A DNA stretch of 64,000 nt from Nitrospinaceae bacterium. GTDB taxonomy: Bacteria; Nitrospinota; Nitrospinia; Nitrospinales; Nitrospinaceae. Under the pieces are notes generated by a model. It had not been told where the DNA came from. It ran no database searches and saw only the letters and a program-made list of their open reading frames with translations. Numbering within the stretch: the first letter of the stretch is position 1; each line of letters begins with the position of its first letter. A program made the position numbers and the translations under genes. Location of the stretch: contig OZ245011.1 of the NCBI GenBank assembly GCA_965223665.1, positions 1,056,001 through 1,120,000 on the forward strand, in the 5' to 3' direction. Positions 1,261 to 20,938 of the stretch are shown piece after piece.

Positions 1261-1571
1261 TTAAGTAAAAACTTTTTAAAATATTCACCCTATTATAAAA
1301 TAAATTTGTCCCTGAATGGCTTTCATCTTACCTCTATTTTTATAATTTATATTTTAAATAAAATAGATTTCTTCTTTAATTATTTTTGTTTTCCTACAAA
1401 ACAACCCTATTTTTCTAACAAAAGTTTTGAGTAATTTTCGCCTTTTCCTAACATTTCAAAAAAAAACTTTAAAATTTACAAATTTTCTACTAGGTTTTTA
1501 TTGGGGTTAGCTTAGATTATTAATATAATTAATATTATACTTTTTCTAATCTCAAAGAATGGAGGTATTCA

Positions 1572-1742
1572 ATGGAAAAAGGATTAAGAATTGAAATATT
1601 TTGTTTTTTATTGGCCTTCTTGATTTTTTCTGGTTGTAGCGCGTTAACCCCTGGTCCAGATAAAGCACAAAGTGCTAATCAGAATAATGATTCTGTTTTA
1701 GCTATGGATTATGATGAGGAAGAGGATGACAATTTTGATTAA
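1572..1742 (+). CDS. Small (56 aa) lipoprotein with acidic tail, absent from the ORF track
   Basis: GGAGGT RBS at 1561-1566; MEKGLRIEIFCFLLAFLIFSGCSALTPGPDKAQSANQNNDSVLAMDYDEEEDDNFD*; lipobox FSG-C. Confidence 0.75.
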   Translation: MEKGLRIEIFCFLLAFLIFSGCSALTPGPDKAQSANQNNDSVLAMDYDEEEDDNFD

Positions 1743-1813
1743 ATCAAAATTCCACTTCTTACTTTCTTAGCATCCCGAAATTATGAGGAAAATTTTCAAG
1801 AGTTTTTATTCGC

Positions 1814-1859
1814 ATCCCTTGGTCCTAGGTAAATTTTGACTCACCTAGGATCAAGGGAT
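1814..1859. terminator. Long hairpin downstream of the small lipoprotein gene
   Basis: ATCCCTTGGTCCTAGGT / ACCTAGGATCAAGGGAT, 17-bp stem with one G-U pair; no strong U tract. Confidence 0.5.
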
Positions 1860-2201
1860 CCGGAAAGAAACCCATCCCTAGTTTCTTACCAAATATTTAA
1901 AAAGTATTATTTGCCTGTCTGTTCCCTCTTATTTCATTTAAACCAATTTTACTTTCAATCCGTCTCCATAAAATTTATCTCAACGAATTTAAAGCCTCAA
2001 TAAAATATTGTTTTTCGAACTTATTTTATTATTTTAGAGGAAAAATATCGGATTTCTTATAGATATTATCTTTTTAAATTTTATCAAACCAAAGTTTAAT
2101 ACCCTCCTAACATAAATCAAACACAGCTTTATTATTTATATAAACCTAGTTTTTTAACTATTTAAGAGTCCCTTGAAAATCAAACAACTCTATTAAAAAT
2201 T

Positions 2202-2543
2202 ATGAATAATAAATTTTTCTTAATATTTCTAGTCACATTATTTATCATCCTGGCCCAATTTAATTTGGTCTCCGCCAAAATAATCCCTCTTGACTTGGAT
2301 AACAGGAATCACATTGAGTTCGTTACCAGTGAACCCGTCGATCCAATGGTCCTTAGCTATACCCCTTCTCAATTAGTTAATCCAAGTAAAACTCAGTCCT
2401 TCAAACCTGGGAAATTAAATCGCAAAAAAAGTAACAAAGAAATTCGAAAAAAAATTAAACAATTCTTAAAAAAAAGAAAAAGAAGAAAAAGAGATACTTT
2501 CGTAAATAATTTCAATCTTGATTCTATCCCCTTTTGTCGGTGA
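2202..2543 (+). CDS. Hypothetical secreted protein with Lys/Arg-rich C-terminus
   Basis: Signal peptide ending VSA; basic tail. The 3' end may run into the adjacent pseudogene. Confidence 0.45.
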   Translation: MNNKFFLIFLVTLFIILAQFNLVSAKIIPLDLDNRNHIEFVTSEPVDPMVLSYTPSQLVNPSKTQSFKPGKLNRKKSNKEIRKKIKQFLKKRKRRKRDTFVNNFNLDSIPFCR

Positions 2544-3409: not shown

Positions 3410-4219
3410 TCATTTAGCGCATCTAAAGCCAATATGAAAATTCTTATTTTCTGGAAGAAGTCTAAACCGGAAACTTGTTCTTAAAGTACTCGGTTCTCCC
3501 GACCAGGAACCCCCTCTAAGAATCTTTTCAGTTCCTTTTTTTGGACCAGGAGGATTATTTATGGAAGCGCTCTCATAATATTTTGAATCATACCAATCAG
3601 AAACCCACTCCCAAACATTTCCTGACATATCATACAAACCATATGCATTAGGCGGAAAACTGCCCACAGGCGAGGTTGTTGTATTTTCATCATCAAATTG
3701 ACTCAACTTCCAGTTATGCTTGCAGTTTTCATCACAAAAATTTCCTTTTAATGACTCAAATTTCATTCCCCAGGAAAATTTCAAGCCCTTCCCTCCCTTC
3801 GCCGCCTTTTCCCACTCCGCCTCGGTGGGTAATCGCTTTCCTACCCTTTGGCAAAATGAATTAGCTTCACTCCAAGTTATCGACTCAATAGGTAATTTTT
3901 CCCCTTTAAAATAGGAGGGGTTGTATTTCATTACTTTTTCAAAGTCCTCTTGCGAAACTTCAAATTGATCCATAAAAAATTCATCTATATGAACCTTGTG
4001 CCGAGGGTTTTCGTCAGCATACCAATCCCGACGACATATTTTGTAATACTTTTTACATTCTTTATAACCTTCATCATCAGGAGCTCCCATAAAAAACTCA
4101 CCCGATGGAATCAATACCATTCCAGAAGTCGGCTTCTCTTTATTTGCGAACGAAATCAATGGAGTCAAAAACACAGTTACTATCAAAATATATTCTAGGA
4201 GTATTAAATTTCGTTTCAT
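3410..4219 (-). CDS. Secreted FGE-sulfatase (SUMF1/formylglycine-generating-enzyme fold) domain protein, copy 1
   Basis: Signal peptide; FFMG, RLPTEAEWEKAAKGG, PNAYGLYDMSGNVWEWVSDWY, RGGSW, IGFRCAK; lacks the catalytic Cys pair of true FGE. Confidence 0.92.
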   Translation of the reverse strand: MKRNLILLEYILIVTVFLTPLISFANKEKPTSGMVLIPSGEFFMGAPDDEGYKECKKYYKICRRDWYADENPRHKVHIDEFFMDQFEVSQEDFEKVMKYNPSYFKGEKLPIESITWSEANSFCQRVGKRLPTEAEWEKAAKGGKGLKFSWGMKFESLKGNFCDENCKHNWKLSQFDDENTTTSPVGSFPPNAYGLYDMSGNVWEWVSDWYDSKYYESASINNPPGPKKGTEKILRGGSWSGEPSTLRTSFRFRLLPENKNFHIGFRCAK

Positions 4220-4243
4220 ATAGAACTACTCTTAAATTACCGT

Positions 4244-4792
4244 TTAATTTGTTTTAATAATCTTAGCGAGCTTTAAAACCTTTGAGCTTATATAAATGTT
4301 TTCTTCTCGTGATCGTTTATAATTTATTTCAAAGTGTACTTTATTGTATTCGACATAAAAATTAACAATCCCTCCAGCCATTGCAAAATTGGGAGTATCA
4401 CTCACTGTCAAAACATTTGAACCTTGCAACCTTTTAATAATTTTTTGAAAGCTTCGTTCTTTTTCAGAACTTAGAAATAACATTTGACAGCACTTTATTT
4501 CCTTTAAGTTTTTTATTTTTCTGACTTCTAACCACCGGCTGTTATATTTTTTCTTGGGAAGTGATTTCAGTGCCCTCAATACAGGACTCTCCCCATAAAC
4601 AGCGATTCGAGTTACTTCTTTACTATTGGAAAACCGGGAATCCGGCCACTCCATGAAGGAAAAAAATTTAACCATAAAAGCCGCTTTAATTTGGTAAGCC
4701 AATGGACTTGTTCTTACAGGGCTATTGGCTTCGGAAACTCCTAGAAATAGAAGAACCACAACTATAATTAATTTTGAAATATTCTTATTCAT
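4244..4792 (-). CDS. YfiR family periplasmic protein, copy 1
   Basis: Signal peptide; YQIKAAFMVKFFSFMEWP, CQMLFLS, VLTVSD, GGIVNF, KVHFEIN, ISSKVLKLA. Confidence 0.92.
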   Translation of the reverse strand: MNKNISKLIIVVVLLFLGVSEANSPVRTSPLAYQIKAAFMVKFFSFMEWPDSRFSNSKEVTRIAVYGESPVLRALKSLPKKKYNSRWLEVRKIKNLKEIKCCQMLFLSSEKERSFQKIIKRLQGSNVLTVSDTPNFAMAGGIVNFYVEYNKVHFEINYKRSREENIYISSKVLKLAKIIKTN

Positions 4793-4878
4793 TTAAACTT
4801 TTCAATTCCAAAGGTAAATCGCGCAAAACTCTTTCATTTAGCAGTTATTTTCATTAATTTAATATTAAGTAAATTAAA

Positions 4879-7800
4879 TCAATTATTGGGGCCATACTCT
4901 TGCGAACAAATTCTATCCCCCTTACTTGTGCCTGCGGAAACCACCATGCATTCCATCTCTATTTCCTCAGATTCATTTTCATAAACCAGATATCTTCTAA
5001 AATAATTCTCAGATTTTTTAATTTTTTTTCTTTGCAATTGGTCCAGACGCATGCTCACTAAGGAATCCATCCAGTTAGGCAATATATCCTCAGTCACTAT
5101 TTTTCCGGATTCTAAAAACTCAAAAAGCTTAGCATTTAAAATAGGGCTGCCAATTTCAGTATCTAGAAGCTCCTCCAAACTTAGCTCGGTGAGTTGTTCC
5201 ATGATCAGGGTTTCGTTCATTTGGGCCAAATTGTAATTGACATTGATTATTTCTGAATTTACCGTGCTGGTTTCTTCAGGTTGGTTTTTAATATTTTCTA
5301 AAAGGTTATTGGTTCGATCATCAGGATCCACCGGTAAGTTAGAAGGAGGACCTGAAGAAATAATGGCGAAATTATCTCCAAAATAGATAAGATTATAATT
5401 GGCTCCGCCGTTACCATCATTGATAGCGAGAGTCCCTTGCGAAATGGGATAACTACCTATAGTTTCACCCAATGCACGAACTTGACTACCCAAAAAACTG
5501 TCCCCTCCGGCCAATGAACCGGCCGTAACACTAAAGGTCAGCGCAGGGTCGGGGTCTCCAACTATTTTACTCTGCCCGGAATTTGCGGTAATCGTAATTC
5601 CTCGTGGTGTGATGGTGAAATTGTCTCCAACGTAAGTGATGCTATAGTTCGCACCGCCATTACCATCACTCACCGTCAACGTGCCCTGATTGATTGCATA
5701 CGTTCCAACATTCTCTCCCGCCGCTCTGGCCTGACTGCCGGTTAACGTATCGCCACCCACTAACGTTCCTGCAGTAATCGTCTGTGTCAACGCAGGGTCA
5801 CTGTTGCCATATACTTTGGTTTGACCCGCATCTGCTGTAATCGTAATACCCCGTTGAGAAATGGTAAAATTATCACCGACATAAGTGATGCTATAGTTCG
5901 CTCCGCCATTGCCATCACTCACCGACAACGTTCCCTGATTGATGGCGTATGTTCCGACATCTTCACCTGCCGCTCTCGCTTGACTACCGGTCAACGTATC
6001 TCCACCCACTAAACTTCCTGCCGTAATGGTTTGTGTCAAGGCCGGATCACTGTTGCCATAGACTTTCGCCTGTCCCGCATCAGCGGTAATGGTAATGCCG
6101 CGTGGTGTGATCGTAAAGTTATCTCCGACATAAGTAATAGAATAGTTCGCACCCCCATTGCCATCGCTTACAGTAAGAGTTCCCTGATTGATCGCATACG
6201 TTCCAACATTCTCGCCTGCCGCTCTGGCCTGACTACCGGTCAACGTATCGCCACCGGCCAAACTTCCTGCAGTGATCGTTTGCGTCAACGCCGGATCACT
6301 GTTGCCGTAAACTTTCGTTTGACCCGCATCCGCTGTAATCGTGATACCTCTTGGCGTGATTGAAAAATTGTCTCCAACGTAAGTAATGCTATAGTTCGCA
6401 CCGCCATTACCATCACTTACAGTCAAAGTTCCCTGATTGATCGCATACGTTCCAACATTCTCACCAGCGGCTCTGGCCTGAGAACCGGTCAACGTATCTC
6501 CACCCACTAACGTTCCTGACGTGATCGTTTGCGTCAACGCAGGATCACTGTTGCCATACACTTTAGTTTGTCCTGCATCGGCTGTAATGGTGATTCCTCT
6601 CGGAGAAATCGTAAAGTTATCGCCGACATAAGTGATTGTATAGTTCGCACCTCCGTTACCATCATCTACTGTCAATGTTCCTTGATTAATTGCATAGGCC
6701 CCTGTATCTTCTCCAGCGGCTCTGGATAAAGATCCTGTTAACGTATCCCCACCCACTAAACTACCTGAAGTAATTGTCTGTGTCAGTGCAGGATCACTGT
6801 TGCCATAGACCTTACCTTGTCCGGCATCTGCTGTAATGGTGATTCCATTTGGCGTGATCGTAAAATTTTCTCCCACGTAGGTAATGGAGTAATTCGCACC
6901 GCCATTGCCATCACTCACTGTCAACGTTCCCTGATTAATCGCATACGTCCCCACATCTTCACCCGCGGCCCGTGCCTGAGAACCGGTCAACGTATCGCCA
7001 CCGGCTAAACTCCCTGACGTGATGGTTTGTGTCAATGCTGGATCACTACTACCAAAAACTTTACTTTGTCCCGCATCGGCGGTAATCGTAATGCCACGGG
7101 GTGTGATCGTAAAGTTATCTCCGACATAAGTAATGGAATAGTTCGCACCCCCATTGCCATCCGATACTGTCAACGTGCCCTGGTTGATGGCGTACGTTCC
7201 TACATTCTCACCCGCGGCCCGTGCCTGGGATCCGGTCAACGTGTCCCCACCGGCTAAACTTCCTGAGGTGATCGTTTGCGTCAACGCCGGATCACTGTTG
7301 CCATACACTTTGGTTTGACCCGTATCCGCGGTAATCGTAATACCACGTGTCGTGATCGTAAAATTATCTCCGACATAAGTAATGGAATAGTTCGCTCCAC
7401 CATTACCATCACTCACCGTCAACGTTCCCTGATTAATCGCGTATGTTCCAACATTCTCGCCTGCGGCCCGTGACTGTGATCCGGTTAACGTATCGCCGCC
7501 GGCCAAACTTCCTGCAGTGATCGTTTGCGTCAACGTCGGATCACTGTTGCCATAGACTTTTGTTTGACCGGCATCTGCCGTGATTGTTATTCCACGTGTC
7601 GTGATCGTAAAGTTATCTCCCACATAAGTAATGGAATAGTTCGCTCCACCATTACCATCACTCACCGTCAACGTTCCCTGATTGATGGCGTACGTTCCAA
7701 CATTCTCTCCCGCCGCTCTGGCCTGACTGCCGGTTAACGTATCGCCACCCACTAACGTTCCTGCAGTAATCGTCTGTGTCAACGCAGGGTCACTGTTGCC

Positions 7801-10800
7801 ATATACTTTGGTTTGACCCGCATCTGCTGTAATCGTAATCCCCCGTTGAGAAATGGTAAAATTATCACCGACATAAGTGATGCTATAGTTCGCTCCGCCA
7901 TTGCCATCGCTTACAGTCAACGTTCCCTGGTTGATCGCATACGTTCCGACATCTTCACCCGCGGCCCGTGCCTGGGATCCGGTTAATGTATCACCACCCG
8001 CTAAACTTCCTGACGTGATCGTTTGCGTTAATGCAGGATCACTGTTGCCATACACTTTCGTCTGTCCCGCATCGGCGGTAATCGTAATTCCACGGGGTGT
8101 GATCGTGAAGTTATCGCCAACGTAAGTAATCGAATAGTTCGCACCGCCATTGCCATCGCTTACAGTCAAAGTTCCCTGGTTGATCGCATACGTTCCGACA
8201 TCTTCACCTGCGGCTCTCCCTTGACTGCCAGTTAAGGTATCTCCACCGGCTAACGTTCCTGCAGTGATCGTTTGGGTCAATGCAGGATCACTGTTGCCAT
8301 AGACTTTTGTTTGACCGGCATCTGCCGTGATTGTTATTCCACGTGTCGTGATCGTAAAATTATCTCCCACATAAGTGATGGAATAGTTTGCTCCGCCATT
8401 GCCATCACTTACAGTAAGAGTTCCCTGGTTGATCGCATACGTTCCGACATCTTCACCCGCGGCTCTTGCCTGACTACCGGTCAACGTATCACCGCCGGCC
8501 AAACTTCCTGACGTGATCGTTTGCGTTAATGCAGGATCACTGTTGCCATACACTTTGGTTTGACCTGCATCGGCGGTAATCGTAATGCCTCTTGGTGTGA
8601 TGGTGAAGTTATCGCCAACGTAAGTAATCGAATAGTTCGCACCGCCATTGCCATCACTTACAGTAAGAGTTCCCTGATTGATGGCGTACGTTCCTACATT
8701 CTCACCAGCCGCTCTGGCCTGACTACCGGTTAAACTATCGCTACCCGCTAAACTTCCTGACGTGATGGTTTGCGTTAACGCAGGATCACTGTTGCCATAC
8801 ACTTTTGTCTGCCCGGCATCGGCGGTAAGAGTGATCGGGCGTGTATTCACCGTTAAGGTGCCATTGGTGAAACTGATGCTATACCCTAATAAATCCGCCA
8901 GCGTTCCCTGCGTTATAGGATACGCACCGACATTACTGGTAGACGTGGCTGTGGTTGTTAGACCTCCAGTAAGTGCCGTACCTGCTGTGTCTCCATCGAT
9001 ATATCCGGAAGAAGCAAAAGTTAGTGCAGGATTACTGTCTCCATAGGTTCTGGCTTTGTCATCGGCGGTAATGGTTAAGGTCGGAGCGATATTGTAAAGC
9101 ACTCCATTATCGGTTGCTAAAAAGTTGCCCGGAATGGTGGGATACGTCGTATTGTATCTTTTTTTATCAGGAACCAAACCGCCTAAGGTCGTGGTTGCAG
9201 GGTCTGATGAATAAATCAACCACCGACCGGAAGCGGCTGATAACGCCCCGGCCCCGGCATTATTGATAAAATCTCCATTATTGGTCGTGGCGATCGTTAA
9301 ACTGTTTCCCGATCCACTGGCCGTTAACACGGTTCCACTGTCCAGTGTGATATCGCTATCTGCCGTCAATAAAATACTGGTTGCATTCACTGCCCCACCA
9401 TTGACCGTCAACGTGGAACCCCCTCCTGTGGCATCTACGGTTAATGCATTGCCCACAGTCGATGCAGCCAATGTGGTTGAAGTATTGTTGGTTAAACTGG
9501 CATCCCCGGTACCTGAAGTTGTAAAACTCACTGCACCTGAAAGTGCATTCGTTGCCGTATCCAGGGTGATCGATTGGTTCGCCAGGTCTGTAGTGAAACT
9601 CGAAGTCCCGCCTACCGTCAAAGCCCCGCTGTCAGTAATGGCGCCACCGGTTGTGATTGTCAGATTCTGACCCACACTCGACGTTGCCAGATCCACTGCT
9701 GTGGTGCCGTTATCCAAAGTCACTCCACCGGTTCCGGATGTGTTAAAAGTCACAGCACCGGTCAAAGCATTGGTCGGGGTGTCCAGGATAATCGATTGAT
9801 TCGCCAGGTCGGTGGTGAAACTCGAAGTCCCACCTACCGTCAAAGCCCCGCTATCCGTAATGGCGCCACCGGTTGTGATTGTCAGATTCTGACCCACACT
9901 CGACGTTGCCAGATCCACTGCTGTGGTGCCGTTATCCAGAGTCACTCCACCGGTTCCGGATGTGTTAAAAGTCACAGCACCGGTCAAAGCATTGGTCGGG
10001 GTGTCCAAAGTAATCGATTGATTGGCCACAGTGGTACTGAAACTGGAGTTGCCCGTTATCGCCAAGGCTCCACTATCCGTAATGGTACCTGCCGAGTTAA
10101 CCGTTAACGTTCCACCCAATGTTGAAGCGGCTAGTATGGTGTTGGTTGAGTCTGTTATAGATACTGCTCCGGTTCCGGAATTGAGAGTTATTGCCCCGGT
10201 AAAATCATTTCCACCATTAGTTAACGTGATCGTATCGCTTCCTGTCACCGTCAAATTGGAAGTTCCGTTGACATCGAAGTTATTTCCAAATCCTCCCACC
10301 TGAGCAATGTCTCCACCGGCAGTAATCACAAGGTTGCCTAAATTGGAAATGGAAGCCACTGTTACATCCGCCGCTGTATTGGTTCCCGAGTTTAAAGTTA
10401 AATGATTAGTAAATCCGGTCACCGCACCAATGTTTATAATACTGGCCGCTCCATTACCGGAATCGAAGGTGGTATTTCCTGTCAGTGACAACGCCCCAAT
10501 ATCTATTTGGGTATTGGTGGTATTAATCGTCCCGGCAGAAGAAGTGACACCGGCTGTCGTGTCCAGTCCCCCGGTGAAAGTAAGCGTTTTGGCATCATCG
10601 TCCAGTAACTCCACTCCCCCTGTATTGAGAAAAGTGGTGTCACTGGTCACTGTGCTGTCATCATAGAAACCGACAAAATAAGGTTGGGCCGTAGTCACCA
10701 GACTGGTAAGCGTCGTCGGTCCCATGAAGCTGATCGCACCGGTGGTATCGGTAACACTCACTGTGGTGGCCGTGGTGGTTCCTGAAAAAAATGTATCGCC

Positions 10801-13800
10801 ACTGTCTCTGATCGTCAGCGTCCCCACATTAGAGACCGAAGCAATGTTGATATCCGAAGCATTATCAGGCCCCGAATCCAGAGTTAAATTATTACCCGCT
10901 CCGGTGATGGCTCCAATGTTCATGTCACTTGTGGATGCCGTGCCCGAATCCAGAGTCGTTACACCCGCCAGAGTTAAGGCCCCGATATCCATTTGGGTAT
11001 CCGTGGTGTTCACTGTTCCACGGGCCGTGGTGGTTCCCGCTGTCGTATCCAGTCCTCCGGTAAACGTTATGATATCTCCGTCGGTATCTCCAAACGTCAC
11101 TCCTCCCGTATTCAGAAAGGTCGTGTCATTGGTAATGGTTCCACCATTGTTAAACAGCACGGAATACCCTTGAGCCGCTGTACTTAAGGTAGTGGCCGTC
11201 ACCGCATCGGTAAACGTGATCGCGTTATCTGTATCGGTGAGTGTGATCGTAGTTGCATTGACGGTACTGTTAAAGGTAGTCGCGTCGCTTTGTGTAATGG
11301 TGAGGCCGGTTAACCCGGTTAGCGCCTGGTTGAAGAAAATGTCACTTCCAGCTGTGGGTCCGCTGTTTTCAACAGTTAAGGTACCACTTGAGGTAATAGT
11401 TTCTAAAGTAATGTCGCCGCCGGCAGTATTGGTTTTGCCGGCACCATCCGCAATGGTGATATTGATATCCCCCGTTCCTGCATCCAGAGTGGTTCCTACG
11501 GCCATGGTGATTTCTGCATTGCCTGCATCGCGCTCAGCATCCACCACACCGTTGGCTAAAGTTTCATTGGCGGTCAGGTTCAGGTTTCCATTATCGGTCG
11601 TGATATTTTGATTGATTAAAATACTGCGGCCTGCCTGCATCGTCAGGTTGCCACCATCCCCTGCTCCATTATCGACAGTGATGGCACTATCGACTGTAAT
11701 ATCATTATTCGCCTGCAGCGTTACATTCTGCGGAGTGCTTAAAAGTGTGGCTAAGGTAGAAGAGGATAAGGTCAAGTCTTCGCTCGCTCGCGTGGCAAAA
11801 ACTGCATCTCCCACCGTATCAGGACCCATATTAAAATTTAAATCACTGAATTGGTAAAGATACACTGCTCCTGAGTTGGAAACACCATTTCCAAATCCAT
11901 CATCCAAATTCGCCCCCACTGCCAAACGGGTGCCATCCAAAGAGATGGACCTTCCAAAGGTGTCGCTTGAGTCTAGTGTTAGGTTAATGTCCTTAGGGCG
12001 GGTATTGTAACCATCGCCCATAATACCCTGCAAAGCACCCGTTCCATCAGTTGCCGATCCGTTATTACTGAAGGTGGAATCTGTAAATTGATATAGATAG
12101 ACGGCTCCACAAGCGGGACAGTCATTGGCTTGTCCATAATCGCTATTTGCCCCTACCGCTAAATTGTTCCCATTTAATGAAAGGGATCTACCAAAAAAAT
12201 CACCCAGGCCCGCATTATTATCAAGCAGAGTGCTGGCATCAATGTTTTTACCTCCGGTTTTACCTTCACCAATAACTGCCTGCTGTGTGATACCAGTAAA
12301 ATCGCCCGTAAAGGTAAACAAATAAACGGCTCCCTCGTTGGTGCCTGCATTGGTGCCAGGACTGGCCAAACCATCATCTCCGGAAGCACCAATGGCCAGA
12401 CGAGTTCCATCCAAACCAATGGAACGCCCAAAACCATCGACTGGATCCAAATTAATATTAAAGTTATTACCCCCCGTATAACCTTCGCCAATAATGGCGG
12501 ACAGAGAGCCACCACTAAAGACGGAATCTGTAAAGGTAAATGCATATGCGGCTCCGACTGATTCAAGATTGGCAAACCCATCATCATTTAAGGATCCAAC
12601 CGCAAGGTGAGTCCCGTCCAGGGATACACTGGTTCCAAATGAATCACCGGTATCCAATTGAGAGGATATATCTATATCCTTGGTACGGGTGTTATAACCC
12701 TCCCCTACTATCCCCTGAAGCGCTCCCGTCCCATCCGTAGCAGACCCATTATTGGAAAATAAACTGTCGGTAAATGTATAGAAATAAACCGCCCCGCTAC
12801 CACTAGCCGAATTTCCCTGACCGTCGTCCGAAGGAGCGCCTACCGCCAAACTTGTGCCATCTAAGGATAAAGCGGAACCAAAATTGTCATTTGTGTCTAA
12901 ACTTAAATTGATATTTTTTCCACCGGTATAGCCCTCACCGATTATGGCCTCCAAGGTACTGCCGGAAAAAGCAGTATCTAAAAATGAATATAAATACACT
13001 GCCCCGGATCCGGATTCCACGTTACCGGAACCATCATCTGTAGGAGCCCCCACTGCAAGCTGAGTATTATCCAAAGAAACTGCAAGACCAAATTCATCTG
13101 AAGATTCTAAACTTTGATCAACATTTTTTCCTATTGAATAGCCTGAACCTAAAGTTCCTTGTTGTATTCCCCCTGAAAAGGAGGAGTCAGTAAAAGTAAA
13201 TAAGTGAACAGCACCAGACTCTGAGACAGCATTACCAAAACCATCGTCACCGAGGGAACTCACTGCCAACCGGTTTCCATCTAAAGAAACACCAAAACCA
13301 AGTTCATCATTAGTTTCCAAAGCCTGGTTTATATTTTTTCCCCCTGTATATCCACTACCAATAGTTGCCTCTAACGTACCCCCCGAAAATGTCGAGTCGG
13401 TGAAACTGTATAAATAAACAGCACCATAATCATTCGAACCACTCAGACCAAAACCATCATCTTCGTAGCTGCCTACCGCTAACCGATTCCCATCTAGAGA
13501 AAGATCCGAAGCATAAAAATCTGAGGTGTCTAAAGATTGGTTGATATTTTTTCCACCGGTATAACCACTACCTAAAGTAGCTTCTAACGTACCCCCCGAA
13601 AATGTCGAGTCGGTGAAACTGTATAAATAAACAGCACCATAATCATTCGAACCACTCAGACCAAAACCATCATCGCTTTCAGCCCCAATGGCAAGACGGT
13701 TTCCATTTAAAGAAACCGATGTACCCAACTCATCGCCGATATCCAACGATTGATCAATGTTTTTGCCGCCAGTATAGCCATCGCCAATCATGGCCTCCAA

Positions 13801-16227
13801 GGTACCGCCGGAAAAGGTGGAATCGGTAAAACTGTATAAGTACACTTCTCCAGAACCATCAACCGTATTCCCAGAACCATCACCGTCATCGGCTCCGACA
13901 GCTAAACTATTGCCATCCAGGGATACTGAAAAACCAAAGCTATCGAGTGTATCTAAATTTTGATTTATATTTTTTCCCCCGGTGTAACCATCTCCAATAA
14001 TGGCTTCCAGATTACCTCCCGAAAAAGAGGAGTCTGTAAAGCTATATAAATAAACCGCTCCAGCATCAGTCTCTATATTCCCAAATCCATCATCATTTTC
14101 AGCTCCAACTACCAAACGGTTTCCATCCAATGAAACCCGGCTTCCAAATTCGTCATTGGCCTCCAAAGATTGATTAATGTTTTTACCACCGGTGTAACCA
14201 CTGCCAATAATCGCTTCTAATGCACCACCAGAAAAAGAATGGTCAGTAAATTCATATAAATAAACTGCCCCTGAATCTGCAACAGAATTTCCGGACCCAT
14301 CATCCCACTGAGATCCAACCGCTACTCGGGTTCCATCCAGTGAAACCGAATAACCAAAGTTATCGCTAGAATCTAAACTTTGACTTCCAATATTCAATGA
14401 ATCGTATCCATTACCAATGATGATGACGCTTTGGTCAAAACTGGTGGTATCCGCAATGGTGATGTTTTTGGGATCGAGGAGGAAGGTTCCTAATCGGTCT
14501 CCACGACCGGTTAAAGCCGTGCCGCCAAAAGTTAATGTATTACCCGAAGAAACTTCAATAAAACCACCAAATCCACTAAGAAACCCGGGTTGAGCTAAAT
14601 ATTGTCCCAATACGGGTCCCCCTTGATCTGACCACGTAATGATCGTTCCACCGTCGCCATGGTCACCCAACGCACTTGCCTTCACTTGCGTCGCATCCGT
14701 CATCGAAAGAATTTGCGCATTCGGCAATTCATCTATTTCCAGATTCTTTCCGCCCTGGTATTCCCCTCCTAAGCGAATCGTTCCTCCACCGGTTTCACCC
14801 GATGCATCCATTTCACCGGAAAGAAACTTTAAGGCAGGTGCCGTTACATCAATTTGCCCACCCTCTCCTTTTGTTCCAATTGCCTTGTATTTGGCGGAAG
14901 TCGTAATCTGCTGCTCTGCCATATGAGAAATCGACCCCCCTTCAGCTCCCGATACATCGATAGAAGCACTGCTGTTCTCCCAGGATTTAGCTTTTGTATT
15001 GAGAACAACCTCTCCACCTTTTCCGGAAAAACCTAATGCTTTGATTGAAGAAGCAATCGATAACCCTCCAGATTCAACAGAAACTATTCCACCAGAATCC
15101 CCACTCGCATCCACCTCTCCACCCACACTCACCCAATGGGTTCCTTCAATGTCGATAGCTCCTCCATCTGAATCTTGACTTGTAGCAAGCAAATTTCCTT
15201 GGTCTATAGTTACCGCAGATCCAGAAACTGAAATGCTGCCTCCAGATTCTCCTGCCTGATCTCCCGAGGCATCTAATACCCCGGCAATATGAACGGCCCC
15301 TTCTCCACCCTCCAGAATAATTTCCCCATTGACTACCGATGCCGTTTTCGCTTCCACTACCCCTGAACTGTTAATCACATGGTCCACTACATTTTTGGCG
15401 GCATTCACCTCCATCACAATCTGCCCACCCTCGGCACTTATGGTTCCACTGTTACTGACTAATGAAATAAGAGGACTGCCATCGAGACCTATCACTTGCT
15501 CTAATACCTGCCCCTCCACACTGAGATTGATCAGTTTGTCTCCATAAAAATCCAGGGTAAACTCCGTCCCCGAGGCAAGATTTACTTTTCCCAGTCGTGC
15601 GGTGATTATTCCTGAGTTTTCCACCCCCGGAGCTACAAAGGCTGCCAATCCCCCTTCAGAAACTGTAATCTGTCCCTGATTAATCACGTAACCCAGGTGG
15701 GATGAGGCCCCTTTAAAAAAATAATTACCTGACATGAAATCTTTGTTGTCGATATCCAGAGTCGTCGCCACCAGACCATTCACATCGATCCGGGATCCCT
15801 TTCCAAACAGGATTCCATTGGGATTGATCAGCATCAGGTTTCCATTGGAAGAGAGCTTTCCAAAAATATTGGATCGTTCAGAACCGGTCACTCGATTAAG
15901 AGTGATTCCATTAGAGGAGGGTAATTGAAAATCCACATGCTCGTTACTATTGATGCTAAAGCTGCGCCAGTCGATAATAGCTTTATTCGTCGATTGCTGT
16001 ATCAACAGCTTCTCTTCATGAGGATGAGAGATAGAGGCGGAACCGGCTTGAACTATACCTTCTTTAGGGAGAGCAACTGCGAGGGAGGAAAAATTACCGA
16101 TTAAGGATATAAGTATAGTAAAAAAACCAATTAGCTTAGAAATTAGTTTCTTAAAGTTTAATTTACTTTTTTTTGAATAAGGTTTTACTTTCAACAAGGA
16201 GCAAAAATAAATAAATGTTTGTACCAA
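4879..16227 (-). CDS. Giant filamentous-haemagglutinin-like (TpsA) exoprotein: TPS domain, beta-helix, 12 FG-GAP repeats, 15 MBG-type repeats, C-terminal Cys pair
   Basis: Extended signal peptide; ALPKEGIVQAGSASI, AIIDWRSFSI, TLNRVTG, INPNGILFG (TPS domain); repeat modules visible in the translation. Confidence 0.93.
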   Translation of the reverse strand: MVQTFIYFCSLLKVKPYSKKSKLNFKKLISKLIGFFTILISLIGNFSSLAVALPKEGIVQAGSASISHPHEEKLLIQQSTNKAIIDWRSFSINSNEHVDFQLPSSNGITLNRVTGSERSNIFGKLSSNGNLMLINPNGILFGKGSRIDVNGLVATTLDIDNKDFMSGNYFFKGASSHLGYVINQGQITVSEGGLAAFVAPGVENSGIITARLGKVNLASGTEFTLDFYGDKLINLSVEGQVLEQVIGLDGSPLISLVSNSGTISAEGGQIVMEVNAAKNVVDHVINSSGVVEAKTASVVNGEIILEGGEGAVHIAGVLDASGDQAGESGGSISVSGSAVTIDQGNLLATSQDSDGGAIDIEGTHWVSVGGEVDASGDSGGIVSVESGGLSIASSIKALGFSGKGGEVVLNTKAKSWENSSASIDVSGAEGGSISHMAEQQITTSAKYKAIGTKGEGGQIDVTAPALKFLSGEMDASGETGGGTIRLGGEYQGGKNLEIDELPNAQILSMTDATQVKASALGDHGDGGTIITWSDQGGPVLGQYLAQPGFLSGFGGFIEVSSGNTLTFGGTALTGRGDRLGTFLLDPKNITIADTTSFDQSVIIIGNGYDSLNIGSQSLDSSDNFGYSVSLDGTRVAVGSQWDDGSGNSVADSGAVYLYEFTDHSFSGGALEAIIGSGYTGGKNINQSLEANDEFGSRVSLDGNRLVVGAENDDGFGNIETDAGAVYLYSFTDSSFSGGNLEAIIGDGYTGGKNINQNLDTLDSFGFSVSLDGNSLAVGADDGDGSGNTVDGSGEVYLYSFTDSTFSGGTLEAMIGDGYTGGKNIDQSLDIGDELGTSVSLNGNRLAIGAESDDGFGLSGSNDYGAVYLYSFTDSTFSGGTLEATLGSGYTGGKNINQSLDTSDFYASDLSLDGNRLAVGSYEDDGFGLSGSNDYGAVYLYSFTDSTFSGGTLEATIGSGYTGGKNINQALETNDELGFGVSLDGNRLAVSSLGDDGFGNAVSESGAVHLFTFTDSSFSGGIQQGTLGSGYSIGKNVDQSLESSDEFGLAVSLDNTQLAVGAPTDDGSGNVESGSGAVYLYSFLDTAFSGSTLEAIIGEGYTGGKNINLSLDTNDNFGSALSLDGTSLAVGAPSDDGQGNSASGSGAVYFYTFTDSLFSNNGSATDGTGALQGIVGEGYNTRTKDIDISSQLDTGDSFGTSVSLDGTHLAVGSLNDDGFANLESVGAAYAFTFTDSVFSGGSLSAIIGEGYTGGNNFNINLDPVDGFGRSIGLDGTRLAIGASGDDGLASPGTNAGTNEGAVYLFTFTGDFTGITQQAVIGEGKTGGKNIDASTLLDNNAGLGDFFGRSLSLNGNNLAVGANSDYGQANDCPACGAVYLYQFTDSTFSNNGSATDGTGALQGIMGDGYNTRPKDINLTLDSSDTFGRSISLDGTRLAVGANLDDGFGNGVSNSGAVYLYQFSDLNFNMGPDTVGDAVFATRASEDLTLSSSTLATLLSTPQNVTLQANNDITVDSAITVDNGAGDGGNLTMQAGRSILINQNITTDNGNLNLTANETLANGVVDAERDAGNAEITMAVGTTLDAGTGDINITIADGAGKTNTAGGDITLETITSSGTLTVENSGPTAGSDIFFNQALTGLTGLTITQSDATTFNSTVNATTITLTDTDNAITFTDAVTATTLSTAAQGYSVLFNNGGTITNDTTFLNTGGVTFGDTDGDIITFTGGLDTTAGTTTARGTVNTTDTQMDIGALTLAGVTTLDSGTASTSDMNIGAITGAGNNLTLDSGPDNASDINIASVSNVGTLTIRDSGDTFFSGTTTATTVSVTDTTGAISFMGPTTLTSLVTTAQPYFVGFYDDSTVTSDTTFLNTGGVELLDDDAKTLTFTGGLDTTAGVTSSAGTINTTNTQIDIGALSLTGNTTFDSGNGAASIINIGAVTGFTNHLTLNSGTNTAADVTVASISNLGNLVITAGGDIAQVGGFGNNFDVNGTSNLTVTGSDTITLTNGGNDFTGAITLNSGTGAVSITDSTNTILAASTLGGTLTVNSAGTITDSGALAITGNSSFSTTVANQSITLDTPTNALTGAVTFNTSGTGGVTLDNGTTAVDLATSSVGQNLTITTGGAITDSGALTVGGTSSFTTDLANQSIILDTPTNALTGAVTFNTSGTGGVTLDNGTTAVDLATSSVGQNLTITTGGAITDSGALTVGGTSSFTTDLANQSITLDTATNALSGAVSFTTSGTGDASLTNNTSTTLAASTVGNALTVDATGGGSTLTVNGGAVNATSILLTADSDITLDSGTVLTASGSGNSLTIATTNNGDFINNAGAGALSAASGRWLIYSSDPATTTLGGLVPDKKRYNTTYPTIPGNFLATDNGVLYNIAPTLTITADDKARTYGDSNPALTFASSGYIDGDTAGTALTGGLTTTATSTSNVGAYPITQGTLADLLGYSISFTNGTLTVNTRPITLTADAGQTKVYGNSDPALTQTITSGSLAGSDSLTGSQARAAGENVGTYAINQGTLTVSDGNGGANYSITYVGDNFTITPRGITITADAGQTKVYGNSDPALTQTITSGSLAGGDTLTGSQARAAGEDVGTYAINQGTLTVSDGNGGANYSITYVGDNFTITTRGITITADAGQTKVYGNSDPALTQTITAGTLAGGDTLTGSQGRAAGEDVGTYAINQGTLTVSDGNGGANYSITYVGDNFTITPRGITITADAGQTKVYGNSDPALTQTITSGSLAGGDTLTGSQARAAGEDVGTYAINQGTLTVSDGNGGANYSITYVGDNFTISQRGITITADAGQTKVYGNSDPALTQTITAGTLVGGDTLTGSQARAAGENVGTYAINQGTLTVSDGNGGANYSITYVGDNFTITTRGITITADAGQTKVYGNSDPTLTQTITAGSLAGGDTLTGSQSRAAGENVGTYAINQGTLTVSDGNGGANYSITYVGDNFTITTRGITITADTGQTKVYGNSDPALTQTITSGSLAGGDTLTGSQARAAGENVGTYAINQGTLTVSDGNGGANYSITYVGDNFTITPRGITITADAGQSKVFGSSDPALTQTITSGSLAGGDTLTGSQARAAGEDVGTYAINQGTLTVSDGNGGANYSITYVGENFTITPNGITITADAGQGKVYGNSDPALTQTITSGSLVGGDTLTGSLSRAAGEDTGAYAINQGTLTVDDGNGGANYTITYVGDNFTISPRGITITADAGQTKVYGNSDPALTQTITSGTLVGGDTLTGSQARAAGENVGTYAINQGTLTVSDGNGGANYSITYVGDNFSITPRGITITADAGQTKVYGNSDPALTQTITAGSLAGGDTLTGSQARAAGENVGTYAINQGTLTVSDGNGGANYSITYVGDNFTITPRGITITADAGQAKVYGNSDPALTQTITAGSLVGGDTLTGSQARAAGEDVGTYAINQGTLSVSDGNGGANYSITYVGDNFTISQRGITITADAGQTKVYGNSDPALTQTITAGTLVGGDTLTGSQARAAGENVGTYAINQGTLTVSDGNGGANYSITYVGDNFTITPRGITITANSGQSKIVGDPDPALTFSVTAGSLAGGDSFLGSQVRALGETIGSYPISQGTLAINDGNGGANYNLIYFGDNFAIISSGPPSNLPVDPDDRTNNLLENIKNQPEETSTVNSEIINVNYNLAQMNETLIMEQLTELSLEELLDTEIGSPILNAKLFEFLESGKIVTEDILPNWMDSLVSMRLDQLQRKKIKKSENYFRRYLVYENESEEIEMECMVVSAGTSKGDRICSQEYGPNN
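5355..8840 (-). repeat. 14 tandem 249-nt (83-aa) MBG-type repeats inside the adhesin
   Basis: Unit ITITADAGQTKVYGNSDPALTQTIT...GTYAINQGTLTVSDGNGGANYSITYVGDNFTI counted 14 times; one further divergent unit at about 8850-9085. Confidence 0.9.
9575..10022 (-). repeat. Near-identical 222-nt (74-aa) tandem duplication in the beta-helical region
   Basis: cagattctgacccacactcgacgttgcc occurs at 9661 and 9883. Confidence 0.85.
11840..14370 (-). repeat. 12 FG-GAP (integrin-alpha-like propeller) repeats
   Basis: DxFGxSVSLDGxxLAVGAxxDDG...GAVYLY counted 12 times. Confidence 0.85.
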
Positions 16228-17003
16228 TAAGTTTTAAGGCAATACTTGGTTTAATTAATAAATCCAAAAACTAAATTACAACTTAGGAAATTATTTGAAA
16301 CTTATATTTATGGAGCTTATGAATAGGTTAATTACCCGAATAACCCAAGTCAACTAATCCATTGATTTTAAAGGCTATTTTGGCATTTCTTCTAATCGAA
16401 ACCCACCATTTTTGAGGTGCTAAAATGAGGGATTTGGAAAGGCTTTAATCAAAAAAAAATTTTTAAGTAATTATACAAAACTACTTTTTTGGGGTGCATT
16501 CTTTATTAGGGAGATGAACTATTTAACTTGGAAATTAAGAATTTTGGCGAGAATGGTACATATACAATCTGAATATTGAGAATAACTTTTCCGATAAAAT
16601 TCCAATTTAAGTATTCAAAAAACTTATATTGAAAAAAGCAGGCCTTAGAAAAAATATTACTAAAGAGATATATAGTAAACAAATTTTTTAAATGTTATTC
16701 CTTAATATTTTATTCTTATTTATTTGATTTTTTTAATATTTTTAATATCCTAACTGATAAAAGGATTAAATAACTTGCCAATTTTTAAATATACAGAAAG
16801 CTAATGAGTAATATTAAAATGGATCCTTTTTCCCTAGAAAGTTGAAGATTGTCGTTTTGAATTTCTTATAAGTTGCCCCATGAATTTAAATAAAGAATAA
16901 AGAGAAAGAATATAGAAGAAAAGCAGATAAATAGCCAACCTGTAAAAAAAATAAACTAAATTACTTATAATAAATACACAGTAGTTATTCGAAAATTCCA
17001 GGT

Positions 17004-18516
17004 TTAAGGAGCAACAGGAGACAGTCTACTTTTATCAAATTTTGGAATTTTTATTTTTATTGTATAAATCGTTCCTATACCTTCACTGGATTCGATATTT
17101 AAACTTCCATCTATTAACTCTAATTGTTTAACGGCAATGGCCATACCTAAATTTGCCTCACCATTACCTATTTCAGATTGATTTTGAGTGAAAGGATTAA
17201 AAATACCATTAATATGGTCGCTAGAAAGGTTTTCACTAGAATCCTGGACAGTGAATTTAAAATAATCATCTTCCTGAATAACTTTAAATGATATTTCGCC
17301 AGAATCGGTATATTTCAAACTATTTTCGAGAATGTTGGTTAGAATTTTCCTTATTTTTTCTTCATCACCAATACTCACAACCGGAATATTTTTTGGAAAA
17401 TCAGATTTCCAATTTAATTTTTTTTGATCGCATAAAGATTTAAATTTAAGAGAAATTTCATTTAATAGTTCATTTAAAGAAAACTTTTCACTATTGACCT
17501 TAATACTCCCGGTTTCCAAATTACAAATGTCGATTATGTTATTAAAAAAGTTTAAAAGTTTTTTTCCACTATCTAAAATATAGTTTAAATTAGATCTTAA
17601 TTTTTCGTCTAAATTCGGAGATAAATTTGACAAATCTGCAAAGCCAATAATTCCATTTAATGGAGTCCGAATTTCGTGACTCATGCTTGCTAAAAATAAA
17701 CTTTTAGAATGATTGGCTGATTCAGCTTCCTTTTGAGCCCTAATTAACTTTTTTGTCCTTTCATCAACTTTTCTCTCCAAATTAATGTTTGAATTTTTTA
17801 AATCAATATTAATTTTTTGAATTTTATCTATCATTGAATTAAATTGATCGAAAAGAACACCAATTTCGTCTGTTTGTTTTTTGTTTGCGCGGATGGAATA
17901 ATCTGCACTTTTCGAAACGGATTTCATTGTAGAGGCAAGTTCCATAATAGGTTGTGCTACCAATTTTTTAAGACTTTGAGAGTGTCGAAAGGCTATTAAC
18001 AACGAAAACAAAATTACAAAAGTTACGATCAAAGAATAATATTTCAAGCGTTCGTATACAGGGTCTAAGTCTGAAACTAACATCAAAGTCCCCAGACGCT
18101 CTGAGTTTAATTTAATTGGTAAAAACAAAATAAATTTACCATTCTCGAAGTACCCCCCATCCTCCCATGGTTCACTTGGAAGAGTTATTTTTTCTTCATT
18201 GGGATTATACTTGGCAAATATCTTCTTGGATTTATCATAAATAGTGGCCACTTTAACAGTGGGTTCAATTTGTAAAGTCTGTAATATTTCATTTGCACTT
18301 CCTTTGTCGAAAAACTCCAGAGAAGCAATGCTGTTAATACCGGTTAGATTTCCAATACTGGTCATTTGTTCATAAATTTTTTCACGAAAATTATAAAGTT
18401 CGTAAAAAGAAAAGCAAAAACATGTCACCAGAATCAAAACTCCATTTGAAACAATAATGGATTTGTTAATTTTGTTTTTTTAGTGAATTCTGATTTTCTA
18501 TTTTTAAAATTTTCAA
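17004..18516 (-). CDS. CHASE8-HAMP sensor histidine kinase (YfiN-like sensor); 5' end frameshifted, ATP-binding boxes degenerate
   Basis: ASLEFFDKGSANEILQTL...VATIYDK sensor; HAMP DEIGVLFDQFNSMI; H-box FLASMSHEIRTPLNG. The N-terminus from TTG 18516 joins the 17004-18437 ORF only if one base of the T7 run at 18475-18481 is removed. Confidence 0.8.
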
Positions 18517-19088: not shown

Positions 19089-19889
19089 GTGTCAATTAAG
19101 TTTAATCCTATCTCCAATAAATGGCTCCCTTCAAGGGATCCATGGTCCACCCCCTTTGCGCAAGCATTATTGCATTATCTGGATCTTTTTGAAGGTGCTT
19201 CTGTATTAGATATTGCTGCGGGTGGAGGCATACCTTCATTTTATATAGCTGATCAAGTGGGATCCAAAGGGCAGGTCCTGGGTATCGATATCCACGAACG
19301 ACAAGTTTTACGAGCACGAACCCTAAAAGGGAACCAGTTTCCCTGGCTCAACTTTGAAGTCGGAGACATGCGATTTTTACCTCCTTCCCTACCCCAGTTT
19401 GACAGAATAACAGGAAACCTTTCTTTTATGTTTTTCCGTCCCAATCGAAAAGAGGCCTTAAAAAATTTAATTCATTTTTTAAAACCCAATGGCCAAATAG
19501 TATTGACTTTTCCTTCATTAGGAACGTTTGATACTTTATGGAATCGAGTCCGAGAAGAAATGGAAAAGCAATTTCTATCCAATGAAAGAGCCAAATTGGA
19601 GGAGTACATTGAAGAACGTCCTTCCGCTTCTCAAGTAAAAATATGGTTGAATGAACTTGGCCTGGAAAAGATAGTCGTAAAAGACTGGCCCTTAGAGGTA
19701 ATCACTGGACCGGGCCGTGAATTTTTAGAGCATCCATTACTGCGTGGTGGATTTCTTGATGATGTTTATGAGTGCTTTGAGGATCAAAACCTCGCTGAAG
19801 AATTCATGACACTCATATCCAATGATGTAAACAGTTTCATTCCCCTTGTGGCACAAAGGTGTGTTATGTCTGGCTGGCTGCCTGCTTAA
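19089..19889 (+). CDS. Class I SAM-dependent methyltransferase
   Basis: VLDIAAGGG, VLGIDI, FEVGDM, LKPNGQIV. Confidence 0.9.
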   Translation: MSIKFNPISNKWLPSRDPWSTPFAQALLHYLDLFEGASVLDIAAGGGIPSFYIADQVGSKGQVLGIDIHERQVLRARTLKGNQFPWLNFEVGDMRFLPPSLPQFDRITGNLSFMFFRPNRKEALKNLIHFLKPNGQIVLTFPSLGTFDTLWNRVREEMEKQFLSNERAKLEEYIEERPSASQVKIWLNELGLEKIVVKDWPLEVITGPGREFLEHPLLRGGFLDDVYECFEDQNLAEEFMTLISNDVNSFIPLVAQRCVMSGWLPA

Positions 19890-19929
19890 AAGAATTGTAT
19901 AAAATAAAATATGTCTATAAAAAATCCTT

Positions 19930-20448
19930 TTACAACATACTATTTAAAAAATCTTCATCTTCCATATCATCACTTAAATATTCCGGAAGTTTTGTACTTT
20001 TGTCAATTATAGCCATTTGAATCTGCATAAGACTTAAGCCTGAAGCATCCGAAAGATTTGCGCCTTTTAAATTAGTTTTCACAAACATAACATCTTCATT
20101 AAACTGGGAACCTTGCACATCTGCATTTTCCAGATTCGCGTTATCCAAGCTGGATTCCATCAAATTACAATTTTTCAGGTTAGCATTGTTTAATTGAGCC
20201 CCATTCAAATTAGCCTCTTGTAAACGTGCTTTTTCTAAGTCAGCCCCATCCATCAAAGCACCACTGAGATTAGAAAACTGGAGTTTGGCATTCTGCAGAT
20301 TAGCGCCTTTTAAGTTTACTTTTATTAACTTAATTCCCCGAAGGTCTGCTTCGGAAAGATCTATACTTTCGTCAGGATTATTTTCTCTCCAAGTATTCCA
20401 TTCCTCAGAGTTATTTTTCAATAAATCTAATTGTTCCGAATTTGCCAT
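19930..20448 (-). CDS. Pentapeptide repeat protein
   Basis: MANSEQLDLLK...WNTWR followed by A(D/N)LxxAxL repeats; start moved to ATG 20448 behind AAGGGG. Confidence 0.92.
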   Translation of the reverse strand: MANSEQLDLLKNNSEEWNTWRENNPDESIDLSEADLRGIKLIKVNLKGANLQNAKLQFSNLSGALMDGADLEKARLQEANLNGAQLNNANLKNCNLMESSLDNANLENADVQGSQFNEDVMFVKTNLKGANLSDASGLSLMQIQMAIIDKSTKLPEYLSDDMEDEDFLNSML

Positions 20449-20623
20449 GGAAATTTCCCCTTTCAGCAATCTAAAAAAATGGACTTTCAGGCCATTGAAT
20501 TTAATGAGGGTATATATTAACAAATTTTATTTATTCTCCATGAAGTTTTTTAACCACAAATATAAAAACCTGGGTCCCTTTTTTTCATCTAATAGCTAAT
20601 TGATAATATTTTAGGAGTGCGCA

Positions 20624-20938
20624 ATGTCCCCAGTGAGTCAAATAGATGTAAACAAGGCTAAAGAATTGTTGGATAGCGGGTCCGCCAATATAGTTGATAT
20701 TAGAGATTCAGCCTCATATTCTATGGCCCATATTCCAAATGCAATCAATCTAAATCAAGACAATGCGGAGAATTTCATTAGTTCCGCCGATAAAAATAAA
20801 ACTTTAGTCGTTTGTTGTTACCATGGAATTTCAAGTCAAGGGGCTGCCCAATATTTTATGGAGAGCGGATTTAAGGATGTCCACAGTTTAATCGGGGGTT
20901 TCGAAGCCTGGCAGCAAAATTTTCCTTCAGAAAGTTAA
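20624..20938 (+). CDS. glpE: Thiosulfate sulfurtransferase GlpE (single-domain rhodanese)
   Basis: IVDIRD, HIPNA, CYHGISSQGAA, SLIGGFEAW; AGGAG RBS. Confidence 0.9.
   Translation: MSPVSQIDVNKAKELLDSGSANIVDIRDSASYSMAHIPNAINLNQDNAENFISSADKNKTLVVCCYHGISSQGAAQYFMESGFKDVHSLIGGFEAWQQNFPSES

Follow-up and report, generated by a model that had tools for sequence, protein, structure and literature searches.

A TpsA, YfiR-like and FGE-fold gene module restricted to one genus of marine Nitrospinaceae, and its possible relation to the TonB-dependent receptor/YfiR-like/CHASE8 trio

What does a periplasmic YfiR-like protein do when its gene lies between the gene for a giant adhesin and the gene for a secreted protein with the fold of the formylglycine-generating enzyme (FGE)? 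The question is raised by a 64-kb stretch of DNA (the window) from a Nitrospinaceae genome, G000, which is 4.35 Mb long with 38% GC and whose nearest public relative, in a genome scan, is a Nitrospinaceae metagenome-assembled genome. An initial annotation had described the gene order TpsA (a two-partner secretion, TPS, exoprotein), YfiR-like protein, secreted FGE-fold protein twice on the minus strand, with a CHASE8-HAMP kinase gene, here HK1, upstream of the first copy. Both observations were confirmed on open reading frames (ORFs) scanned with Pfam; HK1 lies 776 nt from TpsA1, on the same strand. We show below that the module is a selected unit, and tentatively read it as a genus-restricted operon that is a rewired form of a widespread receptor/YfiR-like/CHASE8 trio. 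By analogy, and with the same reserve, the YfiR-like protein may couple the periplasmic tail of the adhesin to an unlinked kinase, HK2. The relevant features are as follows, in window positions, or in contig coordinates where marked C1.

17004-18437, minus strand: HK1, CHASE8-HAMP-HisKA-HATPase_c kinase (Pfam), probably decayed
4879-16227, minus strand: TpsA1, giant TPS-secreted adhesin-like protein of 3782 amino acids (aa) (Pfam and TIGR01901)
15283-16041, minus strand: TPS secretion domain of TpsA1, aa 63-315 (PF05860)
4879-5331, minus strand: C-terminal tail of TpsA1, last 150 aa, after a Pro-rich stretch (alignment)
4244-4792, minus strand: YfiR1, periplasmic YfiR-like protein (DUF4154) of the TOL_0243 type (PF13689, E = 1.7e-40)
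3410-4219, minus strand: FGE1, secreted FGE-fold protein (PF03781, E = 3.9e-58)
63805-64000, minus strand: 3' end of TpsA2 (tail; last 64 codons), the gene continuing past the window
63146-63694, minus strand: YfiR2 (PF13689, E = 1.3e-41)
62311-63162, minus strand: FGE2, with a likely start at the ATG at 63120, giving 269 aa
C1:1147371-1149287, strand opposite to TpsA2 and 18 kb from it: HK2, intact CHASE8-HisKA-HATPase_c-REC kinase

The three genes are closely spaced in both copies. The gaps in copy 1 are 86 nt (TpsA1 to YfiR1) and 24 nt (YfiR1 to FGE1), and those in copy 2 are 110 nt and 25 nt, given the FGE2 start at 63120. No minus-strand terminator-like site was found between the three module genes in a pattern scan, which is a weak test. 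Promoter-like sites in the window were at chance level (42 found, 38.3 expected), 12 terminator-like sites were found against 15.8 expected, and no tRNA genes were present in window 1-24000. Beyond position 64000, where the initial annotation had suggested looking for a second full TpsA, a TpsB and a CHASE8 protein, the whole of TpsA2 was found (C1:1119805-1128930, 3041 aa), as was HK2; there was no TpsB gene adjacent to TpsA2.

The two copies are old paralogues whose synonymous sites are saturated. YfiR1 and YfiR2 are identical at 133 of 181 aa (73%; synonymous difference pS 0.66, nonsynonymous difference pN 0.15), and FGE1 and FGE2 at 189 of 248 aa (76%; pS 0.75, pN 0.17). Orthologues were compared using G018, a sister species of the same genus, which has a single module copy that is orthologous to copy 2 and has the same flanking genes. 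Protein identity of the G018 YfiR is 91% with YfiR2 but 71% with YfiR1, and that of the G018 FGE-fold protein is 86% with FGE2 and 70% with FGE1. Since the G018 module is orthologous to copy 2, copy 1 is the older paralogue. Between copy 2 and G018, the ratio of nonsynonymous to synonymous substitution (omega) was 0.07 for YfiR (dS 0.58), 0.08 for FGE (dS 0.91), 0.10 for TpsA (dS 0.97) and 0.19 for the tail (dS 0.64). Every part of the module is under purifying selection. The omega values of 0.07-0.19, far from neutral, and the occurrence of three copies across two species show that selection maintains the module as a unit; it is not the one-off duplication that the initial annotation had considered as the alternative.

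Copy 1 and HK1 are located at a synteny break, with window 19110-24000 corresponding to 1.78 Mb in G018 and window 4-2512 to 0.22 Mb. Synteny and protein comparison found no G018 counterpart of copy 1 or HK1. Near copy 2, four minus-strand genes at 54193-61461, between FGE2 and a dCache hybrid kinase gene (51558-53909), are missing from G018 at that place; they encode an unknown protein, a CBS pair protein, a CNNM/CBS protein and a P-type ATPase.

The module copies had been described as close in protein sequence and different at synonymous sites. This is accurate for YfiR, FGE and the tail, but not for TpsA as a whole, in which two blocks of identical or nearly identical DNA were found, with limits resolved to 100 codons:

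8278-11868, minus strand: TpsA1 block of about aa 1454-2650, 96-100% DNA identity to TpsA2, mostly 100%
about 14380-15879, minus strand: TpsA1 block of about aa 117-616, about 100% DNA identity to TpsA2

The FG-GAP part and the tail of TpsA are saturated between the copies (pS 0.6-0.84). The mosaic looks like the result of gene conversion confined to parts of the gene, with an assembly effect as the other explanation.

The module is confined, in the searches made, to a single genus of marine Nitrospinaceae. One-genome-per-species scans, queried with the YfiR pair and with the tail, returned no module outside G000 and G018. Neighbourhood counts were made with home-made hidden Markov models (HMMs) built from G000 paralogues, and many of the loci counted are interrupted by contig ends. 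Three of 150 listed TPS genes in a set of 120 Nitrospinota genomes have a YfiR-like match within 5 kb, and these three are the module copies. Across phyla, one of 80 YfiR-like loci has a TPS gene, and that locus is the one in G018. A search of metagenome contigs with the three module YfiRs yielded one locus, of 29% identity, which is a receptor-YfiR-CHASE8 trio and not the module. The best match of YfiR1 outside the module proteins, in a search of 5.8e9 proteins, is 39% identical. The module, for which the initial annotation had proposed a neighbourhood search across genomes, recurs in the sister species, but only in two genomes of one genus.

The module YfiR is assigned by its sequence to the TOL_0243 family and not to the YfiR of YfiBNR systems. 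On NF053591 (YfiR_like_TOL0243), YfiR1 scores 125.6 bits, which passes the cut-off of 125, and YfiR2 scores 124.9 bits, just below it. Scores on NF053586, the true YfiR equivalog, were 44.9 bits (YfiR1) and 44.2 bits, against a cut-off of 85. The match of YfiR1 to YfiR in the PDB is weak but significant (E = 1.4e-4), and there is no cysteine in module YfiR at the positions of Cys145 and Cys152 of Pseudomonas aeruginosa YfiR. In a tree with receptor-linked YfiR-like proteins, those of the module group in a separate clade among them (SH-aLRT 100). YfiBNR had been taken as the reference system; the fitting comparison is the trio of TonB-dependent receptor, YfiR-like protein and CHASE8 kinase, catalogued as NF053590 (TonB_dep_TOL0244), NF053591 and NF053592 (HK_near_YfiR_like), for which no experimental study was found. 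The earlier observation that a YfiB-like partner is missing was upheld among the scanned neighbours, which include no OmpA/YfiB-like ORF; the whole genome was not searched for YfiB.

The usual context of this family was assessed in two sets, namely 21 Nitrospinota-type comparison loci (one metagenome locus and the 20 highest-ranking Nitrospinota matches from outside the genus) and the 80 cross-phylum loci. A TonB-dependent receptor gene lies directly upstream of the YfiR-like gene in 20/21 and 57/80 loci, respectively, and anywhere in the flank in 71/80 of the latter. A CHASE8 protein is encoded directly downstream in 9/21 loci of the first set and downstream in 73/80 of the second. No TPS or FGE gene adjoins the YfiR-like gene in any of the 21 comparison loci. 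Among 58 well-assembled Nitrospinota genomes, 65 of 103 YfiR-like matches lie beside a CHASE8 gene. G000 itself has two canonical trios, each with receptor, YfiR and CHASE8 protein in that order on a single strand. In the module, TpsA occupies the usual position of the receptor and the FGE-fold protein that of the sensor. Since relatives of this YfiR are nearly always preceded by a gene for an outer-membrane protein, it is a fair analogy to read TpsA as the partner on the envelope side.

Incomplete trios were also seen. At C1:3697777-3699857 of G000, a YfiR-like frame of 86 aa, in which the family match is broken by a TAG, directly precedes a CHASE8 protein gene and looks like the decaying YfiR of a trio remnant. 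Five genomes of the neighbouring genus g5 (G029, G031, G032, G033 and G036) each have one sensorless TonB receptor-YfiR pair and, elsewhere in the genome, one lone CHASE8 protein of about 870 aa, which suggests that they hold split trios working in trans.

The nearest candidate kinase for the module is HK1, which the initial annotation had proposed as the output, and which would then sense the state of the adhesin through YfiR1. Since there are 5 CHASE8 genes in the 4.35-Mb genome, the position of HK1 upstream of TpsA1 on the same strand is unlikely to be due to chance. The sensor part of HK1 reaches 181.9-190.8 bits on NF053592, and the H-box histidine and the N box are kept. The score is, however, below the cut-off of 194, and three signs of decay were found. 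First, a TAA at 18480-18482 interrupts the HK2-homologous frame, and the frame open to 18479 has no ATG, GTG or TTG start before a TTG midway through the first membrane helix. Second, the glycines of the G1 (DxGxG) and G2 (GxGxG) boxes, which are required for ATP binding, are lost; they are kept in four related kinases, namely HK2, the kinase of one G000 trio (trio-A), and L043 and L050 from other genera. Third, there is no REC domain in HK1, nor a remnant of one in the 776-nt spacer, while HK2 and the trio-A kinase both have REC. HK1 also has no orthologue in G018 (best match 49%). HK1 is probably a dead, decaying copy, and it is very unlikely to be the working output of copy 1.

No CHASE8 gene adjoins copy 2 or the G018 copy. 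The remaining candidate is HK2, which scores 204.1 bits on NF053592 and passes the cut-off. HK2 has no adjoining YfiR or receptor gene and has an intact, lone CHASE8 counterpart in G018, where the distance from the module is likewise 18 kb. Lone CHASE8 kinases and modules are equal in number, with 2 and 2 in G000 and 1 and 1 in G018.

An alternative explanation of the gene order is historical adjacency, in which a rearrangement placed TpsA before a YfiR-like gene bereft of its receptor and sensor, and the block was later duplicated whole. YfiR would then still serve an unlinked receptor and HK2, and the FGE-fold gene would be one of 34 FGE-domain genes in G000. The single origin of all three copies and the position of copy 1 at a synteny break favour this, as do the split receptor-YfiR pairs and lone sensors elsewhere and the receptor-like genes without a YfiR partner that occur in G000. 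In addition, 28 of the 34 FGE-domain genes have no neighbour recognised by the home-made models. However, the gene order and the short gaps have outlasted synonymous saturation in three lineages while the flanks rearranged, the omega of YfiR and FGE is 0.07-0.08, and an unrelated FGE gene 24-25 nt after YfiR in every copy is improbable unless it was co-inherited and retained. Historical adjacency is considered unlikely.

With TpsA as the candidate partner, its structure is of interest. TpsA1 comprises a signal peptide, the TPS domain, a beta-helix, 12 FG-GAP repeats, DUF5649 and Thr-rich repeats, 15 MBG_2 domains, a Pro-rich linker and an orphan C-terminal tail. The TPS domain was recognised by PF05860 in the first 400 aa alone (E = 9e-37, 127.8 bits against a cut-off of 33.5) and by TIGR01901 (81.4 bits, cut-off 29.1), and Pfam detected 15 MBG_2, 12 FG-GAP_2 and 4 DUF5649 matches in the whole protein. 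A TPS domain is likewise present at the N-terminus of TpsA2. In both TpsA1 and TpsA2 the conserved end is preceded by a Pro-rich stretch, and the final approximately 40 residues of the tail are nearly invariant across the three module copies in an alignment. The final 173 aa of TpsA1 fall in no Pfam or NCBIfam family. Relatives of the tail in the search of 5.8e9 proteins comprised 3 proteins only, two from G000 and one from G018; a tail HMM found one cluster and no other relative among 1.84e9 representative proteins, and the best score of the tail against the ESM Atlas was 0.84, under the level of a lead.

Of the four ShlB (TpsB) genes in G000, three adjoin other TpsAs; the fourth, at C1:4055375-4057111, is an orphan. 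Because both module TpsAs have their TPS domain mostly within the first identical block, a single TpsB could serve both.

Two further TPS loci in G000 were noted. The first (C1:3885397-3892735) encodes, on one strand, a TpsB, a FecR-domain protein, a TpsA of 776 aa and a CHASE2 adenylate/guanylate cyclase, and is thus a further case of a TPS protein beside a periplasmic-sensor signalling protein; a transglutaminase-TPR-FGE fusion gene is convergent to it. The second (C1:2578583-2587477) encodes a TpsB, a TpsA of 727 aa and then a WD40 protein of 1038 aa, and a caspase-FGE fusion gene is convergent to it. An FGE protein as a general partner of TPS loci was considered and rejected; the fusions at these two loci, although within 5 kb, are convergent, multi-domain and of a different type, and most FGE-domain genes of G000 (28 of 34) lack a recognised neighbour.

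The third module protein retains the FGE fold but probably not the enzyme activity. In FGE1 the PF03781 domain is full length, and the best relatives of solved structure are the human and bacterial FGE (E = 1e-33). When FGE1 is aligned to human FGE, whose catalytic cysteine pair is residues 336 and 341, the first of these two positions has no counterpart because of a 3-residue gap or the second lies there, and the remaining one is opposite a Thr. FGE2 has the same C-terminal motif, and the consensus of an alignment of 50 FGE1 relatives has no cysteine at the catalytic positions. Because both catalytic cysteines are missing, the module protein is unlikely to generate formylglycine. By eye, its N-terminus is signal-peptide-like and has no lipobox cysteine. 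FGE1 scores far below the NCBIfam cut-offs of PvdO, GldK, EgtB and SenA. Of the 34 FGE-domain genes in G000, only the two of the module adjoin a YfiR gene. A third FGE-fold gene of the window, at 39596-40378 on the minus strand, is followed 44 nt on by a gene for a stand-alone response-regulator receiver (39150-39551).

A second alternative is that the YfiR-like and FGE-fold proteins are accessory factors of the adhesin with no kinase involved, acting in the periplasm as chaperone, holdase or anchor of the tail, or modifying or binding the exported protein. The FGE fold is known in non-enzymatic envelope proteins, and GldK/PorK and PvdO are among the best NCBIfam and PDB relatives. Spacing within the module is tight and its genes are jointly conserved, two of the three module copies (copy 2 and that of G018) have no adjacent CHASE8 gene, and the sole adjacent kinase looks decayed. 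The tail, YfiR and FGE have also diverged in each copy while other parts of TpsA were homogenised. Against this, the family contexts of YfiR-like proteins include a CHASE8 sensor in 73/80 loci and 65/103 matches, no DUF4154 chaperone is known, and DUF4154 appears in the searched literature only in the YfiB-YfiR structure paper. An accessory role for both proteins is possible but doubtful.

We return to the coupling of the adhesin tail to HK2 through the YfiR-like protein. In YfiBNR, as described in PMC4655355, YfiN is held in repression by YfiR until YfiB sequesters the latter, in part by strand pairing of YfiR with an unfolded YfiB segment, and the YfiR surface that binds YfiB is the same surface predicted to bind YfiN. 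By extension, all three module products would enter the periplasm, where the YfiR-like protein would bind the CHASE8 domain of a sensor in the inner membrane and keep it in check, and an envelope protein encoded by a neighbouring gene would titrate the YfiR-like protein away. This partner would most likely be the orphan tail of TpsA while still in the periplasm, in the manner of the FhaB prodomain; the inactive FGE-fold protein may be a co-factor or a second ligand, and the likely output would be the intact, unlinked hybrid kinase HK2. The earlier interpretation is retained in part, with the module as a selected unit and TpsA as a fair partner by analogy, but not with HK1 as the output or YfiBNR as the reference.

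Several points weigh against this coupling. The periplasmic retention of the tail is an argument by analogy only, and both co-transcription and binding among the tail, the FGE-fold protein, YfiR and CHASE8 are putative. No cognate TpsB (POTRA and ShlB barrel) is encoded beside TpsA1 or TpsA2. The fold prediction of the tail, from an alignment of just 3 rows, had a mean pLDDT of 45 and a pTM of 0.30. The lone status of HK2 is weak evidence because lone CHASE8 genes are common (34/99 in the 58 Nitrospinota genomes, including G022-G025, which have no unpaired YfiR), and the match in number between kinases and modules is weak evidence as well. A clean co-descent of lone kinases and module YfiRs was considered and not borne out by trees, and HK2 has its nearest paralogue in trio-A, a trio with a YfiR very far removed from those of the module. 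Finally, with the module confined to two genomes, its conservation amounts to a single origin, a single duplication and a single speciation.

A structural prediction of the complex was also performed. It combined the tail (149 aa) and FGE1 (245 aa) with YfiR1 (158 aa) as the partner, and the complex scored 0.63, 0.62 and 0.62. Controls in which YfiR was replaced scored 0.02 and 0.00, but substituting FGE alone, with YfiR left in place, gave 0.65, and the mark was therefore missed. The prediction was counted neither for nor against binding.

Elsewhere in the window, a gene for a GAF-GAF-MshEN-T2SSE ATPase of 1023 aa (29204-32275, minus strand) is divergent from that of a PAS/GAF histidine kinase of 1728 aa (32657-37843, plus strand), and genes for an HDOD protein and a GAF hybrid kinase adjoin this pair.

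Compared with the catalogued trio, the module has the same YfiR-like family, an envelope-protein gene directly upstream of YfiR on the same strand and, in G000, CHASE8 kinases of the matching type (HK1 and HK2). It differs in that the upstream gene encodes a giant TPS exoprotein in all three copies and not a TonB-dependent receptor, the downstream gene encodes a secreted FGE-fold protein and not a CHASE8 sensor, and the kinase gene is found upstream in degenerate form (HK1) or at a distance of 18 kb (HK2). With YfiBNR (TpbB/DgcN; P. aeruginosa, Escherichia coli) and Yersinia HmsCDE it shares a DUF4154 periplasmic protein and, with YfiBNR as set out in PMC4655355, the proposed scheme in which an envelope partner sequesters the periplasmic protein that represses a CHASE8 sensor. 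In contrast to YfiBNR, the module YfiR falls below the NF053586 cut-off, no YfiB-like gene lies beside it, and the CHASE8 proteins are histidine kinases, whereas YfiN is a CHASE8-HAMP-GGDEF cyclase encoded downstream of yfiR. Relative to SUMF1 FGE and the envelope proteins PvdO and GldK/PorK, the module protein has the same full-length FGE-sulfatase domain, but unlike SUMF1 FGE it has no catalytic cysteine pair.

TpsA resembles the Bordetella FhaB of the FhaB/FhaC system in its N-terminal TPS domain and in being a very large, repeat-rich exoprotein. The FhaB prodomain is about 1200 aa long; the TpsA tail, at about 130 aa, has no sequence relatives outside the genus, and TpsA has no adjacent TpsB. 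According to PMC4542190, the FhaB prodomain is periplasmic, and in FhaB a Pro-rich region is followed by a conserved extreme C terminus, as in TpsA, where a Pro-rich stretch is followed by a short, strongly conserved C-terminal end.

Literature searches found no work linking YfiR with filamentous hemagglutinin or CHASE8 with two-partner secretion, in a search that did not cover supplements. Searches for YfiR with TonB-dependent receptor and histidine kinase, or for YfiR-like, YfiR homolog or YfiR family, returned nothing on this arrangement, as judged from listings.

What has been documented well, at present, is a lineage-specific rewiring in a marine lineage of the uncultured type, and it is a lead rather than a system. 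In its most far-reaching form, the proposal is that a YfiR-like adaptor has exchanged a TonB-dependent receptor for the periplasm-retained adhesin tail as its target, so that a CHASE8 hybrid kinase would read whether the adhesin is exported, stalled or pulled; we regard this as rather unlikely. If true, the module would belong to a circuit that senses surfaces or the state of secretion, with a dead FGE-fold protein as third component, and would be the first case of a two-partner-secretion adhesin feeding YfiR/CHASE8 signalling through an adaptor able to switch its envelope partner. YfiR-type adaptors would then be interchangeable plugs between envelope proteins (YfiB, TonB receptors, TpsA) and CHASE8 sensors, and the module would help to explain the working of the very common but unstudied receptor/YfiR-like/kinase trios.

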